64,000 nt of DNA, taken from NCBI GenBank assembly GCA_963828805.1, contig CAWHGS010000021.1, positions 26,974-90,973 on the forward strand, in the 5' to 3' direction. The notes below the pieces were generated by a model that made no database searches, was not told where the DNA came from, and saw only the letters and a list, made by a program, of their open reading frames with translations. The DNA comes from an uncultured delta proteobacterium (lineage in GTDB: Bacteria > Desulfobacterota > BSN033 > UBA1163). Each line of letters starts with the position of its first letter. The stretch's first letter is position 1. Shown piece by piece: positions 55,001-60,913 of this stretch. Position numbers and translations under genes: made by a program.

Positions 55001-56134
55001 TCAGTGGGAGAAACAGGTCGTTTTTAACTGATCTCTATCCTGCAGGACCTCCTTCATTTCTTTCAATGAGAAGAGGAAGGCGGAAACGAGGTTAGGATCA
55101 AATTGCTTGCCCGCCCATTTCAATAGTTCCTTTTTGGCCTCCTCCCGCGTCAGGGGTTTACGATACGGGCGATTCGACGTCATGCTGTCATAGGAATCAG
55201 CGACGGCAATGATCCTTGCCCCGAGAGGAATCTGGTTTCCCCTCAATCCCTCAGGGTAACCGTTCCCGTCGAAGTGCTCATGATGGTGCTCAATATACGA
55301 GACAAGCGTGGGAGAAAGGTTGAGGGGGGATAGAAGCTCAATCGCTTTTCGGGTGTGCTGTTTGATGATGGCCCAGTCGGTGTCTGTGAGGGCGCCCTTC
55401 TTATTGATGAAGCGGTTGCTGATTCCAATCTTCCCGATGTCGTGGAGATAGGAGGCAATTTGGAGCTCGGTCCGATCTTTCGGGGGAAGGGAAATCTTTC
55501 TTGAAATGAGGTCGGAATAATGGCAGACTCGCTCAGAGTGGCCTGACGTATAGGGATCTTTTTCTTCAAGCGTGAAGGATAAGACTTTTGAAAATTCGAG
55601 ACAGGTCTGATGGTCTGAAACACCCAGGTCATTCAGATGGGACGAAACCAGGTCCTCTCTTCCGGGAAGGAAGAAGCCGTTTGAATTCATTTGAGAAGAA
55701 TGGGAAGGGGTTTGCGAAAAGGACTGTCTCAGAAAGCTTCTTGCCTTTAGCTGGAGTTTTCTCCGCTGCAGGGCTTTCTCAATGATGCCTGTGATCTCCT
55801 TGACATTAAAGGGCTTTGATATAAAATCGAAAACCGCGTGACGGATGGCTTCAATGGCGCTCTGTAAGGTTCCAAATCCGGTGATGATGATGACCATCAC
55901 ATCGGGATCGATCACCCGGATCTGTTTCAACGTTTCAATACCGGACATGCCCGGCATCCTAAGATCCAAGGTAATGACATCCACCTCGATTTCCCCGAGG
56001 AGTTGGAGGGCTGAAGAACCATCTTCAGCAGAGTAAACGTTATAATTGGGTTTCAGAATCATTCGGAGCGATTCTCTCGGACCGATTTCATCGTCAACAA
56101 TTAGCACGTTCGGCAAATGGGAATTGATATCCAT
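55001..56134 (-). CDS. Response regulator with HD-GYP c-di-GMP phosphodiesterase output domain
   Basis: REC domain (VLIVDDE..DVITLDLRMPGMSG..) plus HD-GYP (YLHDIGKIG, HHEHFDGNGYPEGL). Confidence 0.85.
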   Translation of the reverse strand: MDINSHLPNVLIVDDEIGPRESLRMILKPNYNVYSAEDGSSALQLLGEIEVDVITLDLRMPGMSGIETLKQIRVIDPDVMVIIITGFGTLQSAIEAIRHAVFDFISKPFNVKEITGIIEKALQRRKLQLKARSFLRQSFSQTPSHSSQMNSNGFFLPGREDLVSSHLNDLGVSDHQTCLEFSKVLSFTLEEKDPYTSGHSERVCHYSDLISRKISLPPKDRTELQIASYLHDIGKIGISNRFINKKGALTDTDWAIIKQHTRKAIELLSPLNLSPTLVSYIEHHHEHFDGNGYPEGLRGNQIPLGARIIAVADSYDSMTSNRPYRKPLTREEAKKELLKWAGKQFDPNLVSAFLFSLKEMKEVLQDRDQLKTTCFSH

Positions 56135-56178: not shown

Positions 56179-56194
56179 AGCAAGAAATTTGCCA
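56179..56194 (-). promoter_or_regulatory. Candidate sigma54 (-24/-12) promoter for the HD-GYP response-regulator gene
   Basis: The minus strand reads TGGCAAATTTCTTGCT (TGGCA-N7-TTGCT, exact consensus spacing). The -12 element lies ~45 nt upstream of ATG 56134, directly downstream of an NtrC-type activator gene. Confidence 0.55.
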
Positions 56195-56395
56195 GATGGA
56201 GTAAAAAGGCCTAACATATCTTTAATTACCTGAAATTAAAGGATATAATTTGTTGGAGGGTCAGATCTCTCCAAGTATCGAAAGGCAGAATCCTTGCCAA
56301 AGGATGAGCCGTCACGGTCCTCAATAACACGTAACTCTTTATAATTTAAGAGTAAAATCGAATTTACCCAAATTGGACAGGGCTTGACAAAACTG

Positions 56396-57787
56396 TTATT
56401 GTTCTAAAATCGATCTTGTGCTATCCTGCAGAATTCCGAGCTTATCTATCTTGTATTTTAGAATGCGGCGGCTGATTCCCAGCAACTCTGCAGCCTGAGA
56501 TTGAACGTTGTTTGCCCTCTTGAGGGCATCCGAGATGAGCTCCCTTTCAAACTCCTCTTCAGCCTTCAACAGGGAGACATTTCCCTGGAGGATCGATTCC
56601 TTAAGGCCATTCGTCTTCGGCGTATCGAGAGAAGAAAAGGGTAATTCGGAGGGCTGAATATACTCGTTTGGCGTCAATGCCACCATCCGTTCGATCAAGT
56701 TTTCCAGCTCCCGTACATTTCCAGGCCAACCATACTGAGTCATCCAGGTCAAAACTTCTTCACTGACTCCTTTCACCCTCTTGCCATTTTCTTCATTGAT
56801 CTTCTTAATAAAATGTTCGATCAAGAGAGGAATGTCCTCCCTTCGGTCTCGCAATGGCGGAATCACGATAGGAACCACATTGATCCGGTAATAGAGATCT
56901 TCCCGGAATTCCCCCTTCTTGATCTGTTGAGTCAGGTCTTTGTTGGTGGCCGTGATGAGCCTCACATCGACTTTGATCGTTTTGGAACTCCCCACCCGGT
57001 TGAACTCTTTTTCCTCTAAAAACCGGAGAATCTTTGCCTGGGTGGCGAGACTTAATTCACCGATTTCATCAAGGAAGAGGGTTCCTGGGTGGGCCACTTC
57101 ACAGCGCCCCAACTTCTTCTCAATGGCGTTTGTAAAGGCTCCTTTCTCGTGGCCAAAGAGCTCGCTCTCCATCAATGTTTCTGGAATCGCGGCACAGTTG
57201 ATCGTGATAAAGGGAAAATTCTTCCGCGGGCTTTGATGATGAATCGCCCGCGAGACCAGCTCTTTGCCCGTTCCGCTTTCACCCATGACGAGAACGGTCG
57301 CCCTGGAAGGAGCGATCTGTTCGATCAGATGAAAGATATGCTTCATCCCTTTGCCTTTTCCAATCATCCTCCCGAAGTCGTACCGCTGATCGATTCTCTC
57401 GCGGAGGTACTTCACCTCCTTCAGCAGGGCTTGATTGGAGAGCGCCCGGTTGACGATCAAACGAAGCTCGTCCACATCGAAAGGTTTCGTCACATAATCA
57501 TAGGCGCCGAGTTTCATCGCTTCGACAGCGGTTCGGACCGTCCGCGTGGCGGTGATCATAATCACAATCGTGTCGGGGTCTTCCCGTTTCATCCGTTCCA
57601 ACACCTTCAATCCATCCAGATCTGGAAGCAGAATATCCAACAGAATGATGTCCGGGGTGTGTTCTTTCATCTGCGAAAACGCCTCATCTGCGCTCTTGGC
57701 AAGAAGGACCTCGAACTCCTCCTTGAAGACCATCTTGAGTGATTCCCGGGCTCCGATTTCATCATCCACAATCAGAAGGCTTTTCAC
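56396..57787 (-). CDS. Sigma54-dependent response regulator (NtrC family: REC + AAA+ + Fis HTH)
   Basis: LLIVDDE..DIILLDILLPDLDG (REC). GESGTGKE, GAFTNA (GAFTGA variant), LFLDEIGEL, EDLYYRINVV. C-terminal AAELLGISRRILKYKI. Confidence 0.9.
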   Translation of the reverse strand: MKSLLIVDDEIGARESLKMVFKEEFEVLLAKSADEAFSQMKEHTPDIILLDILLPDLDGLKVLERMKREDPDTIVIMITATRTVRTAVEAMKLGAYDYVTKPFDVDELRLIVNRALSNQALLKEVKYLRERIDQRYDFGRMIGKGKGMKHIFHLIEQIAPSRATVLVMGESGTGKELVSRAIHHQSPRKNFPFITINCAAIPETLMESELFGHEKGAFTNAIEKKLGRCEVAHPGTLFLDEIGELSLATQAKILRFLEEKEFNRVGSSKTIKVDVRLITATNKDLTQQIKKGEFREDLYYRINVVPIVIPPLRDRREDIPLLIEHFIKKINEENGKRVKGVSEEVLTWMTQYGWPGNVRELENLIERMVALTPNEYIQPSELPFSSLDTPKTNGLKESILQGNVSLLKAEEEFERELISDALKRANNVQSQAAELLGISRRILKYKIDKLGILQDSTRSILEQ

Positions 57788-57805: not shown

Positions 57806-59356
57806 TCAGACGTTGCTCGCAGGGTAATAAATGACCTTTCTTCTCTCAATGGGAAGTCGAAGGGAGATGAGGGTTCTCGGCTTCTTCTCATTGACGTCAA
57901 TCGTCATTCTTCCCTTATTCTTTTTCAGGATTTCGTGGATGAGCCTCAACTCCAGTTCCTCGGCTTCCTCGGGTTGTGGGGAGGAAATGCCAAAGACCGT
58001 GTCATAGGTGTCCATCGTCTTTTTAAAACCCGTGAAAATCATCAGGATCTCAATCCATTCCCTCTCCCTGTCGGAGCGGGCTTCTTCTCCATCGGCTTGC
58101 TTCGGCTCCACAAACAGCTTCGTCAAAAATCCAATGCTCCCGTGGGGAGGAAGGAAGGGCAGAACATACTGAAGCAGCGAATGAAAGATATAGCGCAGCT
58201 GCTCATCGTGCATCATGGTTTCCGGAAGATCTTTCTCCAATTTCTTGAATAGCTTGATTTTCTTTTCTTCAAAAAGAGCCTCATGTCGCTTTAATACCTC
58301 TTCGAGAATTTGATGAATCGTATTCGATTTGTTGAGAGGCGTATTCATCTTAACGTAATTGAGGAGACCATTCAGCACGAGATCAATCTTTTCGATGTCA
58401 TCGCTCACCACCTTATAAAAAGAGTCCCGGTATTCCCCGTCATTAAATTTCTCCCGCAGCAGTTGCGTAAAGGTTTTGATCGAGACCAGGGGGTTTTTAA
58501 TCCGGTGAACCAGTTCGGCCAGAAAAAAGATCCAGGGGAGGGACTGGTGCTCACGGTCCGAGGGGTCTCCATTCGATTCATAGGGAGTTTTGAAATCCGT
58601 TCTCTTGAGAAAGCCAAAAAAAGAGTTCTTCTCGTTTTCCGCATTAAAAAAAAGATCCTTTTCCATCAGGTTCTCTCCCTCTGAAAAAATGGCGCTTCGA
58701 AGGATCACCGTCTCCAATTCTTTGAGGTTTCCGGGCCACCAGTAACTCTGCAGTAGGGAAAGGACGTTAGGAGAAATCCCTTTCCTTTTCAGGTTCATCC
58801 GGGTGGCATAGTCAAGCAATAAATGACGAGCGATCGTCGGAATATCTTTGCTTCGATCTCTTAAGGGAGGAACATAAATGGACAGGGTGTCAAGCCGCCG
58901 GTACAAATCCTCAGAAAATTTTCCCTGGAGGACTCTCTCCCTCAGATTCTCGGAGGCGGAAGCAATCCACCGGAGGTTCTTCACGATCCGTTTTTCACCG
59001 TTGAATTTAAAGAGGCCCTCTTCCATGAGATCGACAAGCCTTAATTGGTCTCCCTGACTCAAATATCCGACCTCTTTAAAAAAAAGAGTGGCCGGGATCG
59101 CTCCGTAACGCGTCTCTTTAAAGAGAAGGCTGAGTTGGGGCAGGAGGGTTCCCTCCTTCACTATCTTGCAGTCGATCTTATAGAAACGGTGGTATTTCCA
59201 TTCTCCCGTTTGGTAAACGACCCTTGCAACCCACTCCTTTCCGACCCCCTGTTCGCCCTGAATGAGGACGGGAACATTATTCTGGGCAGCTTTTTGGATC
59301 AAAGGGATGATCTGGGCAGGAATGATTCGCGCTTGTAGGATATCTTGGTATTGCAT
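57806..59356 (-). CDS. Hybrid protein: degenerate sigma54-activator-type AAA+ domain fused to HisKA and a degenerate HATPase-like domain
   Basis: The N-terminus has GEQGVGKE (Walker A), but LFFKEVGYL replaces LFLDEIGEL and there is no GAFTGA loop. EDLYRRLDTLSIYVPPLRDR is retained. The C-terminus has ELVHRIKNPLVSIKTFTQLL (DHp His box) but no recognisable N, G1 or G2 boxes. Confidence 0.7.
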   Translation of the reverse strand: MQYQDILQARIIPAQIIPLIQKAAQNNVPVLIQGEQGVGKEWVARVVYQTGEWKYHRFYKIDCKIVKEGTLLPQLSLLFKETRYGAIPATLFFKEVGYLSQGDQLRLVDLMEEGLFKFNGEKRIVKNLRWIASASENLRERVLQGKFSEDLYRRLDTLSIYVPPLRDRSKDIPTIARHLLLDYATRMNLKRKGISPNVLSLLQSYWWPGNLKELETVILRSAIFSEGENLMEKDLFFNAENEKNSFFGFLKRTDFKTPYESNGDPSDREHQSLPWIFFLAELVHRIKNPLVSIKTFTQLLREKFNDGEYRDSFYKVVSDDIEKIDLVLNGLLNYVKMNTPLNKSNTIHQILEEVLKRHEALFEEKKIKLFKKLEKDLPETMMHDEQLRYIFHSLLQYVLPFLPPHGSIGFLTKLFVEPKQADGEEARSDREREWIEILMIFTGFKKTMDTYDTVFGISSPQPEEAEELELRLIHEILKKNKGRMTIDVNEKKPRTLISLRLPIERRKVIYYPASNV

Positions 59357-59366
59357 CGTTCAATGA

Positions 59367-60620
59367 TTAAAAAGGGTTCAGCTGGTTTCCAAACTCCCTC
59401 TTCCGGGGCAGAGTGTCCCGATGGAGGGGTAAATTGACATAGAACGTGGATCCATTGTTCGGCTGGCTTTCCACATCGATATAGCCTTTATGCTCCTGGA
59501 CGATCTGGTTGGAGATGGATAGCCCAAGTCCGCTTCCCGTATGCTTGGTGGTGAAGAAAGGGTTAAAGATACTCTCCAGGTATTCCGGCGGAATTCCACA
59601 CCCGGTATCGGTGAACTCGATCTGAATATAGGGGTCTCCGTTGGATTTGATGTAAGGCCTTGTTTTGACGCATATCTTTCCGCTCTCTGCTGTTGCCTCA
59701 ATGGCATTGATCAAGATGTTTAAAAAGACCTGCTTCATCTGCTCCCGATCGATCGGAACAGGAGGCAGATTCGGAGGAAAATCTTTATTAATATGGATCT
59801 GTTTTTTCTTGGTTCCGCTGGAAACGAGAAGGATGATTGAATCCAGGATAGTATTGATATCTTCGGCCTCTACCTTTGGGTCGGAAGGTCTGGCAAACTC
59901 GAGAAGTTCATTGATCAGGCTTGAAATCCGGTCAACCTCTCCCGACACAATGTGGAGAAAATGGTTCCGAAACTCCTCATCATCAAATCGCTCCGGCAAA
60001 AGCTGCGTAAAGGTTTTTATCGCAACGAGGGGATTCCGGATTTCATGGGCTAGGGCAGCCGTAAGGGTTCCGAGAGAAGCCAAACGGTCGGCTCTTTGCA
60101 TATGCGATTTTGATTTCTTAAGGTCTTCCGTCAGTCTTCTATTCTCAAGGGCATTCGCGGACTGGGTTGCAAGGATGGATAAAACTTCGACATCTTCATG
60201 GGTATAGGGATCGGGAGGCGACTTCGAGCCGAGACAAATCAATCCGTTTAGATTTCCGTTCAAAATCAGTGGGATGATAATGGCAGCTTCCAGTAGAGAC
60301 ATGCGTTCAGAGAGATCGGCTTCTTTTACAAGTTCATCCCGAAGCAGAATATCCCCTCGTTTCAGGAGTTCTTGAGAGAGGGGGTCCTCTCTGGCGAGGA
60401 TCGATGAGGGGCTCATTCGACCCTTTGAGTGAACCGATTCAACCAGATGAAACCCTCCCTTTTCTTCATTCAGCAGGAAAAGAGAGGCCGTTTGCGCACC
60501 CATGGCTTTTACCATGGTCTCGAGAATCTGCTTTGCGAGCGATTTCAGGTCGGGAATAGAGTTCAGGGCAATACTGAAGTTTTTTAGGGTTTCAAGGAAG
60601 GGTTCTCGGTTTCCGGACAT
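59367..60620 (-). CDS. Sensor histidine kinase (GAF + HisKA + HATPase_c)
   Basis: LAHEIRNPLVAIKTFTQLL (H box), NILINAIEA (N box), DTGCGI (G1) and GSGLGLSI (G2). The start is taken at ATG 60620 (AGAGGA RBS); 60647 or 60842 are alternatives. Confidence 0.85.
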   Translation of the reverse strand: MSGNREPFLETLKNFSIALNSIPDLKSLAKQILETMVKAMGAQTASLFLLNEEKGGFHLVESVHSKGRMSPSSILAREDPLSQELLKRGDILLRDELVKEADLSERMSLLEAAIIIPLILNGNLNGLICLGSKSPPDPYTHEDVEVLSILATQSANALENRRLTEDLKKSKSHMQRADRLASLGTLTAALAHEIRNPLVAIKTFTQLLPERFDDEEFRNHFLHIVSGEVDRISSLINELLEFARPSDPKVEAEDINTILDSIILLVSSGTKKKQIHINKDFPPNLPPVPIDREQMKQVFLNILINAIEATAESGKICVKTRPYIKSNGDPYIQIEFTDTGCGIPPEYLESIFNPFFTTKHTGSGLGLSISNQIVQEHKGYIDVESQPNNGSTFYVNLPLHRDTLPRKREFGNQLNPF

Positions 60621-60720
60621 CGGTCCTCTGTTGAAATGGACTGCCATAAGGATTTGCCCTACCCAATGGGTATCATGGAGCGAAAATCTAAAAAATAGGC
60701 ATTGTACCGATTTCAACGCT

Positions 60721-60749
60721 ATTATTATCGTTATTTTCCGTTCTGTCAA
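60721..60749 (-). promoter_or_regulatory. Candidate sigma70 promoter for the kinase-hybrid-NtrC operon
   Basis: The minus strand reads TTGACA (60749-60744), 17-nt spacer, AATAAT (60726-60721). Confidence 0.4.
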
Positions 60750-60913
60750 CAATTTTGTACATCCGCCTTTTTGTCGCTTTTGGGTGGAAGTCAAAGGCCG
60801 AGAAGACTCGAATGAAGATAAATACCTTTGAATTATGGCCATTTACAAAACGTCTTGAAATGATTAAAAAAATATGCTATTGTTTTTTTGAATTTTTATA
60901 CAAGGAGATACCG

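Follow-up and report, generated by a model that had tools for sequence, protein, structure and literature searches.

Comparative sequence analysis of PSK, a predicted fusion of degenerate sigma54-type AAA+ and kinase transmitter modules conserved between a histidine kinase and an NtrC-type activator

Two-component systems are usually drawn as pairs; as the well-studied exceptions RedE, RetS, NifL and DivL illustrate, however, kinase-like proteins that lack kinase activity can be the true points of control. The subject of this study is the product encoded at positions 57806 to 59356 of the window, the 64,000-nucleotide stretch of DNA from an uncultured delta proteobacterium (assembly GCA_963828805.1, contig CAWHGS010000021.1) that was analysed here, for which we use our own label PSK (pseudo-bEBP/pseudo-kinase; bEBP, bacterial enhancer-binding protein). 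PSK is a conserved third component of a cassette made up of a kinase and an NtrC-type activator and is inherited with that pair, and its sequence identifies it as a sigma54-type AAA+ protein with a kinase transmitter in place of the DNA-binding domain. Kinase-like third parties (RedE, RetS, NifL, DivL) and sigma54-type AAA+ domains without the GAFTGA motif (TyrR) are already known. Such an AAA+ domain has been reused as an oligomerisation or ligand module in TyrR and in Rhodobacter capsulatus NtrC, which keep a DNA-binding domain and are sigma70-dependent, whereas in PSK a kinase transmitter takes the place of a helix-turn-helix (HTH). In DivL the His is replaced by Tyr and the catalytic (CA) domain binds ATP, and RedE is not known to have an AAA+ domain or to work with sigma54 activators as partners.

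In the 'four-component' system RedCDEF of Myxococcus xanthus, the kinase-like protein RedE is incapable of autophosphorylation and dephosphorylates RedF (PMC2755868). Like PSK, RedE is encoded with a real kinase and response regulators; it modulates the real pair as a phosphatase or phosphoryl acceptor (PMC2755868), and the likeness in sequence considered here is that of the generic HisKA fold. NifL of Azotobacter vinelandii (PMC12998190, PDB 9qq6) resembles PSK as a kinase homologue without kinase activity that is paired with a sigma54 activator, and the kinds of module found in NifL and NifA, namely the dimerisation and histidine phosphotransfer (DHp) and GHKL domains on the one side and AAA+ on the other, are joined in one chain in PSK. 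Unlike PSK, NifL is a separate protein that senses through PAS domains and binds ADP in its GHKL domain; PSK lacks a sensor domain as well as the CA nucleotide boxes, and the AAA+ domain that it carries itself is degenerate, with a second, real activator encoded by the gene downstream. RetS, which shares the kinase fold with PSK, regulates the kinase GacS by DHp-DHp contact and not through phosphorylation of a regulator (PMC8498467; PDB 6dk7, 7n0e). It differs in being a hybrid kinase of the membrane that carries receivers, in having an HATPase_c domain that can be recognised, and in lacking both AAA+ and operon linkage. DivL and the kinase-related domains of plant phytochromes (PDB 4q20, 8isk) are pseudo-histidine kinases that have, like PSK, lost kinase chemistry and kept the transmitter fold for protein-protein signalling, but without fusion to AAA+. 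Full-text searches of the literature returned nothing relevant on the PSK fusion, which agrees with the initial annotation of this DNA, made from the sequence alone, in regarding the architecture as uncharacterised. What appears to be new is that two decayed modules are fused, that the fusion has a fixed place between the working originals, and that there is an expanded family of stand-alone pseudo-transmitters.

The N-terminal half of PSK matches the Pfam families Sigma54_activat at residues 15-160, with 78 bits as against 239 bits in the neighbouring activator, and AAA_lid_14 at residues 166-244; no match to the HTH_8 DNA-binding domain was found in PSK, and HisKA follows the lid. BLASTP aligns residues 15-239 with the neighbouring activator at 32% identity (E 4e-38), with an 11-residue gap exactly at the GAFTGA loop of the activator (here GAFTNA) and the L1 hairpin absent; LFLDEIGEL of the activator is LFFKEVGYL in PSK. 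The same losses are seen in the alignment to Aquifex NtrC1, and the GAFTGA position is occupied in PSK by the 11-residue gap, or by ETRYGA. This loss is common to all relatives. A residue census was taken over 119 sequences (PSK orthologues). Walker A Lys40 is kept in all of them, with the preceding residue 39 being Gly in 82 and Glu in 33; the Walker B Asp position is held by Lys94 in 110 and by Arg in six, the FRED Arg position is Ser in 112, and the Arg-finger position is Arg in 71 and Gln in 42. The AAA+ domain is modelled by AlphaFold with a pLDDT of about 90. In Foldseek the N-terminal half pairs with the AAA+ domains of NtrC1, ZraR, PspF and NifA (E 1e-15 to 1e-18; NtrC1, 4e-18) and also with that of FleQ. 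A FleQ-like c-di-GMP (cyclic di-GMP) site, with its post-Walker-A R-N, was looked for by eye in the PSK AAA+ domain, and the Asn is absent (KEWVARV).

In the C-terminal half, Pfam recognises HisKA at residues 278-338 (32 bits), and neither HATPase_c, even at E<=1, nor a PAS domain was matched in PSK. BLASTP aligns PSK with the neighbouring kinase over residues 280-505, including the whole catalytic domain (26% identity, E 5e-23). From kinase to PSK HEIRNPLVAIKTFTQLL changes to HRIKNPLVSIKTFTQLL, the N box from N..(x3)..N to S393/Y397, the G1 box from DTGCG to FTGFK and the G2 box from GSGLGL to AEELEL, the second N-box Asn position being Tyr in 118/119 orthologues. The DHp residues follow another pattern: the phospho-acceptor His284 is found in 117/119, Asn288 at H+4 in 118/119 and Pro289 in 119/119, and H+1 is Arg285 in 119/119, the acid having been lost. 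Every residue of DHp helix 1 is invariant in 56 orthologues, and the DHp is the most constrained part of PSK. In 18 pairs of kinase and PSK taken from the same genome, the two proteins agree mostly in DHp helix 1 and in the loop between the helices, where receiver contact and dimerisation take place; elsewhere, in helix 2 and the CA domain, they have drifted to about 20% identity. AlphaFold models residues 345-505 as a confident alpha/beta sandwich (pLDDT 80-95) and leaves the DHp poorly defined, as is to be expected of a dimeric bundle modelled as a monomer; the single-chain pTM of 0.50 gives no confident packing between domains. Foldseek matches the C-terminal half to the transmitters of LvrB, ZraS, RetS, HK853, WalK and DivL with a probability of 1.0, and also to phytochrome kinase-related domains.

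These results bear out everything that the initial annotation stated about the sequence; it had described a sigma54-type AAA+ domain with Walker A GEQGVGKE, Walker B LFFKEVGYL and no GAFTGA, now supported by both Pfam and BLASTP; a DHp whose helix 1 nearly copies that of the upstream kinase, to which the Pfam HisKA match and the kinase alignment both attest; and a following domain without N, G1 and G2 boxes, in accordance with the missing HATPase_c match and the aligned S/Y, FTGFK and AEELEL. Domain HMMs and alignment to activators and kinases, which it had proposed as a check, place the motif losses across the family. Its view that both enzymatic modules are dead stands in part: ATPase and kinase chemistry is degenerate family-wide, whereas the phospho-chemistry residues His284, Asn288 and Pro289 of the DHp are near-invariant. 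From the residue census, ATP hydrolysis, sigma54 contact and ATP-dependent His phosphorylation by PSK are judged to be excluded by sequence, and its catalytic domain to have lost ATP binding. PSK proteins are publicly annotated as 'sigma 54-interacting transcriptional regulator' or 'nitrogen-specific signal transduction histidine kinase'; both names are generic and misleading, to go by its sequence PSK can be neither, and the protein is a case for caution in annotation.

The best 120 database matches to PSK are 507-547 aa long, with one exception of 450 aa, at identities of 57-99%, and the same four Pfam matches occur in all but one of them, the exception lacking the HisKA match only. A reading frame of 513-519 aa is found in more than 100 independent assemblies, and more than 118 full-length orthologues share the architecture. 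At least 20 genomes of the family besides that of the window carry an orthologue that is full-length and free of stops. The ratio of nonsynonymous to synonymous substitution rates (dN/dS) over the whole gene is 0.09-0.14 (0.14 against a 94%-identical and 0.10 against an 85%-identical orthologue); by domain it is 0.08 for AAA+, 0-0.04 for the lid, 0.02-0.07 for the DHp and 0.14-0.23 for the CA-like domain, and every domain of PSK is under purifying selection. The initial annotation had named a hidden frameshift, joining two genes into an artificial fusion, as a finding that would overturn it. In favour of such an assembly artefact or a decaying pseudogene, the assembly of the window has split-frame, indel-type matches in several other activator genes; the gene at this locus is intact, however, and orthologues of the same length and architecture without internal stops, together with dN/dS near 0.1, refute the objection, leaving it a negligible chance.

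The gaps of 10 nt from the kinase stop (59367) to PSK and of 18 nt from PSK to the GTG start of the NtrC-type gene (57787) are as the initial annotation gave them, and synteny in related genomes confirms its placing of PSK as third member of a kinase-activator operon. In a survey of 401 genomes from 255 genera of the phylum Thermodesulfobacteriota, PSK orthologues without a receiver (REC) domain are confined to the family of the window, and REC-bearing relatives occur in five other families (20 genomes); the phylogenetic range of the architecture, which the initial annotation had wished to see surveyed, is thus one family plus these relatives. A kinase lies upstream of PSK in 18/22 checked loci, and in those the activator lies downstream wherever the contig allows. 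The order DnaJ, Zn-ribbon, kinase, PSK, activator, REC-HD-GYP, CcsA is found in 10/10 other genomes of the family, and the kinase stop overlaps the PSK start in most of the ten related genomes. Identity to the window proteins in these genomes is 48-60% for PSK, 59-65% for the kinase, 70-76% for the activator and 61-66% for the REC-HD-GYP protein. Seven genomes of the family without PSK are also without an orthologue of the cassette activator, their best match being 44-51% identical versus 70-85% in true orthologues. Among ten distant-family loci examined, five to seven have the order kinase (700-950 aa, with membrane and GAF regions), REC-PSK, activator, and the remaining loci run into contig ends or lack a flanking gene. 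A REC-HD gene follows the activator in at least one distant-family locus.

When 1.84 billion cluster representatives were searched exhaustively and without a profile, only 296 matched at E<=1e-30; apart from orthologues they fall into two classes. One class of relatives is 620-660 aa long and has an extra N-terminal receiver, with about 30% identity to PSK from end to end. These REC-bearing proteins are without GAFTGA and without HATPase_c, and their Walker motifs are variably degenerate; in the pseudo-receiver the phospho-acceptor Asp is replaced by Gly, Glu or Asn and the conserved Thr is lost, with the helix-1 docking signature kept. Their H-box is the canonical HE(I/V)KNPL, or begins HK in L049, a Lys at H+1 that also occurs in the unplaced representative P0166, and the His and the H+4 Asn are kept in all of them at this level of identity. 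The other class consists of stand-alone proteins of 280-345 aa that comprise the linker helix, DHp, pseudo-CA and an ERRKVxYY tail. These paralogues are 35-49% identical to the C-terminal half of PSK and number several per genome in the family of the window; the tail is common to them and PSK and absent from real kinases, and the His and Asn are not conserved in them. At the 14 stand-alone loci L021-L034, a PilZ-domain gene adjoins in four and a gene for a membrane HD_5 protein (HD-GYP-like, GYP absent) in three.

A wide distribution outside the phylum was considered and rejected. A contig scan returned mostly ordinary activators because one of its two patterns (YxWPGNxxEL) is generic; apparent two-half loci in Acidobacteriota, Gemmatimonadota, Rhodoferax and Syntrophus proved to be adjacent kinase and activator genes with no fusion, and L077 was the only true relative. 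In the phylogenetic tree the AAA+ domains of all PSK proteins, whether or not they come with a receiver, fall into a single clan (100/100), and the cassette activators make up one clade. The long PSK branch lies outside all real activators, so that no sister group can be assigned to it. The order in which genes and domains stand (kinase-[activator'::kinase']-activator) leads us to infer an origin by tandem duplication of the kinase-activator pair, followed by a deletion that would have joined the REC-AAA+ of the first activator to the DHp-CA of the second kinase. PSK is a phylogenetically old module in which a decayed copy of a motor and a decayed copy of a transmitter are kept between their functional counterparts.

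Of particular interest in PSK is the combination of residues kept and lost in the DHp. Helix 1 below the His is reportedly the region that determines receiver docking and dimer specificity, as studied in HK853-RR468 and EnvZ. In four HisKA kinases the acid at H+1 is needed for kinase activity only and the Asn or Thr at H+4 for phosphatase activity only (Willett & Kirby, PMC3510030): with E372A the kinase activity is gone and the phosphatase is at wild-type level, N375A eliminates the phosphatase function alone, and H371A lowers that function no more than modestly (PMC3510030). The EnvZ DHp alone has phosphatase activity, according to work cited in the same paper. By these rules the H-R-x-x-N of PSK is a kinase-minus, phosphatase-plus signature, and the loss of the H+1 acid with retention of His284 and Asn288 means that the DHp may still be a phosphatase or a receiver-docking site. 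At least two lineages have separately acquired a base where the acid stood (Arg in the family of the window, Lys in L049) while His, Asn(+4) and Pro(+5) are kept in all fused lineages, a pattern from which the phospho-chemistry residues of the PSK DHp are read as being under selection.

We therefore tentatively prefer, at somewhat less than even odds, a reading of PSK as a phosphatase or phosphate sink that docks receivers, has no kinase activity and is tethered by an AAA+ domain incapable of hydrolysis, for which RedE is a precedent as a kinase-like phosphatase. The working part would be the four-helix bundle of the DHp, its first helix copied from the adjacent kinase. It would dock receivers phosphorylated by the real kinase, namely that of the NtrC-type activator and probably that of the REC-HD-GYP protein, and would drain or buffer the phosphorylation of one or both. 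The receivers of these two proteins share the helix-1 signature DDExGxRESLxM, and in a comparison of covariation between the DHp and receiver helix 1 both sides are almost invariant. The AAA+ and pseudo-CA domains might serve, speculatively, as oligomerisation, targeting or regulatory surfaces, for example by holding the phosphatase beside the AAA+ assembly of the activator. The net effect in this family would be a negative tuning or resetting of the sigma54 output that switches on a c-di-GMP phosphodiesterase gene. The DHp residues thereby offer a clean sequence-level prediction, kinase-minus and phosphatase-plus, and PSK would bear on how sigma54 pathways in uncultured relatives of sulfate reducers are reset or insulated.

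Several points weigh against a phosphatase dock. An invariant His is no proof of chemistry, and NifL likewise retains a His that it is not known to need. In some kinases, nucleotide bound in the CA domain stimulates the phosphatase, an effect that is impossible in PSK, and Arg at H+1 lies outside the substitutions tested in the kinases (Ala) and could disturb phosphatase geometry. The reading gives no compelling role to the conserved AAA+ domain, the pseudo-CA surfaces or the ERRKVxYY tail, and the stand-alone paralogues without His and Asn show that the module can act independently of phosphorylation. There is also an 85%-identical orthologue under purifying selection with no kinase or activator adjoining (L135:2006-3556, on a 4.6-kb contig of the metagenome-assembled genome (MAG) GCA_936419595.1). 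The flanks of this orthologue resemble four different contigs of the genome of the window, with short tRNA-sized matches, and the locus is either a real relocation or a chimeric contig.

The near-copy of the kinase helix 1 would equally suit an inhibitor of the RetS kind, in which the PSK DHp forms a heterodimer with the kinase DHp, breaks the homodimer and blocks or redirects autophosphorylation. Such an arrangement has its precedent in the disruption of the GacS DHp dimer by RetS (PMC8498467), and RetS is among the best structural matches found by Foldseek. Helix 1 and the loop are nearly identical in the 18 in-genome pairs, with loops of equal length; the two genes are translationally coupled, which favours co-assembly; and within its own genome the PSK transmitter has no relative but the neighbouring kinase. 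Helix 2, however, makes up half of the dimer core and in PSK has strongly diverged from the otherwise ultra-conserved helix 2 of the kinase, and a purely structural role would leave unexplained why His, Asn(+4) and Pro(+5) hardly vary across lineages at about 30% identity and why an AAA+ domain is needed, so that we regard this possibility as rather unlikely. The AAA+ domain comes to the fore if PSK is instead an anti-activator, either entering mixed, poisoned rings of the activator that are poor in GAFTGA loops and Arg fingers or clamping the ring with its DHp and pseudo-CA as NifL does on NifA. Its AAA+ fold is intact and highly constrained, and with the L1 loop and the Walker B Asp lost and the Arg finger only 60% Arg, a PSK subunit would cripple neighbouring sites in a ring. 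PSK mimics the REC-AAA-dimeriser build of NtrC, with distant relatives keeping an Asp-less receiver, and in NifL the DH and GHKL domains bind the NifA AAA+ domain (PMC12998190). Against this, the PSK AAA+ domain stands on a long branch apart from real activators and a compatible interface is unproven, NifL needs ADP in its GHKL domain where the PSK CA has no nucleotide pocket, and neither the tracking of the kinase helix 1 nor the retention of His and Asn is accounted for; an anti-activator is on balance an unlikely solution as well.

The invariant His could also mark a branch point in a phosphorelay, with His284 phosphorylated in trans by the kinase CA or by back-transfer from a receiver and the phosphoryl group handed on to another receiver, for instance that of REC-HD-GYP. 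Transfer of a phosphoryl group from RedD to RedE is known (PMC2755868), distant relatives of PSK have the canonical HE(I/V)KNPL box, and the cassette has two receivers with the same docking helix; yet the acid needed at H+1 for phosphorylation of His from ATP is Arg in 119/119 and Lys in at least one further lineage, and the pseudo-receiver of the relatives has no Asp, which makes a relay improbable. An active kinase of non-canonical type, supplied with ATP by the divergent CA or by the AAA+ P-loop, might be argued from the invariant Walker A Lys40 and from purifying selection on the pseudo-CA. The divergent CA domain of Nla6S of Myxococcus xanthus is said to show that missing boxes do not always mean inactivity. 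In PSK, however, conserved residues that are hydrophobic or other than glycine stand in place of all of N, G1 and G2, residue 39 has gone from Gly to Glu in 33/119, the Walker B Asp has become Lys and the H+1 acid is absent, and activity of this type is very hard to credit. The initial annotation had itself proposed heterodimerisation with the kinase through the DHp and poisoning or scaffolding of the NtrC ring, and both are plausible rivals. The rivals are not mutually exclusive, and a protein that copies both partners may touch both. Binding of c-di-GMP to the catalytic domain of CckA switches that kinase to phosphatase mode. A bolder and decidedly unlikely scheme would have the PSK DHp dephosphorylating the receivers of the activator and REC-HD-GYP, its AAA+ domain engaging the activator ring or the kinase and its pseudo-CA re-used as a sensor of a ligand or partner, possibly c-di-GMP, with the Asp-less receiver as a decoy added to the AAA+ half in sister lineages. 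If this double mimicry held, PSK would be a node of feedback that connects a two-component pathway with the turnover of c-di-GMP, and the stand-alone DHp and pseudo-CA paralogues would be a new family of phosphorylation-independent signalling adaptors.

The features of the locus are collected in Table 1. The upstream kinase is a bona fide one (HATPase_c, 94 bits), with an open reading frame (ORF) of 491 aa. Homology to its orthologues runs from residue 78 onward and a sigma70-like promoter at 60721-60749 lies within the long ORF, so that the window probably encodes a soluble kinase with a GAF domain, some 416-425 aa in length. The kinase is about 720 aa long with an N-terminal membrane region in 8/9 related genomes that have it on the contig (L011-L019), and the short form is also found in one other genome (G020).

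Table 1. Coordinates of PSK, its domains and motifs, and the neighbouring features of the cassette in the window.
Feature	Position	Strand	Details and basis
PSK gene, whole	57806..59356	-	516 aa; ORF, Pfam architecture, 118 same-length orthologues, dN/dS
Sigma54-type AAA+ core	58862..59356	-	Residues 1-165; Pfam, alignments, AlphaFold, Foldseek
Walker A GEQGVGKE	59234-59257	-	Within AAA+ core
Walker B position TLFFKEVGY	59063-59089	-	Lys94 in place of Asp
AAA+ lid	58637..58861	-	Residues 166-240; PPLRDR, WWPGNLKELE; AAA_lid_14, 64 bits
Linker with conserved NSF..FLKK helix	58532..58636	-	Residues 241-275; stand-alone paralogues start here
HisKA DHp	58337..58531	-	Residues 276-340; H-box ELVHRIKNPLVSIKTFTQLL; His284 codon 58505-58507
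Degenerate catalytic (CA/GHKL-fold) domain	57842..58336	-	Residues 341-505; without N, G1 and G2 boxes
Conserved C-terminal tail P-I-E-R-R-K-V-I-Y-Y	57824..57853	-	Invariant P502, E504, R506, Y510
Bona fide GAF-HisKA-HATPase_c histidine kinase	59367..60842	-	Pfam; start probably Met66 (60647) or Met75 (60620)
NtrC-type sigma54 activator: REC, AAA+ with GAFTNA, HTH_8	56396..57787	-	Pfam; Sigma54_activat, 239 bits
REC-HD-GYP response regulator, putative c-di-GMP phosphodiesterase	55001..56134	-	Pfam Response_reg and HD_5; HHHEHFDGNGYP motif in translation
Sigma54 -24/-12 promoter TGGCAAATTTCTTGCT	56179..56194	-	About 45 nt upstream of REC-HD-GYP gene
Candidate enhancer (upstream activating sequence): two near-palindromes, ACAGTTTTGT and CCAATTTGG	56367..56397	-	Begins at activator stop codon

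The genome of the window encodes rpoN, and in aligned intergenic regions of all 11 genomes of the family TGGCA-N7-TTGCT stands at the same position before the REC-HD-GYP gene. Since this sigma54 promoter is conserved, transcription of the c-di-GMP phosphodiesterase gene is the likely output of the cassette in this family. The two near-palindromes are a candidate enhancer, and the block ACAAAATTGT...TTCAATTTTGA is conserved in most of the 11 aligned regions, that of L020 being one in which the block was not evident in the alignment. The promoter link to REC-HD-GYP is shown for the family of the window only, a simple pattern search having found no strict sigma54 promoter after the activator in the REC-bearing cassettes of other families. 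In one of these distant families a further REC-HisKA-HATPase hybrid kinase (L046:1243-2433, minus strand) follows the REC-HD gene, and the pathway may be longer there.

Within the family of PSK orthologues, the one at G013:C4:13228-14775 lies in three overlapping pieces, two of which contain TGA stops; it adjoins an intact, 85%-identical activator and represents a pseudogene or an assembly error. In the assembly of the window itself, a 64%-complete MAG, other sigma54-activator genes match in two adjacent reading frames (C5:15954-16626, C28:10983-11706, C47:29228-29966, C33:56677-57404 and C38:12166-12847), which suggests indel errors or pseudogenes at those sites.

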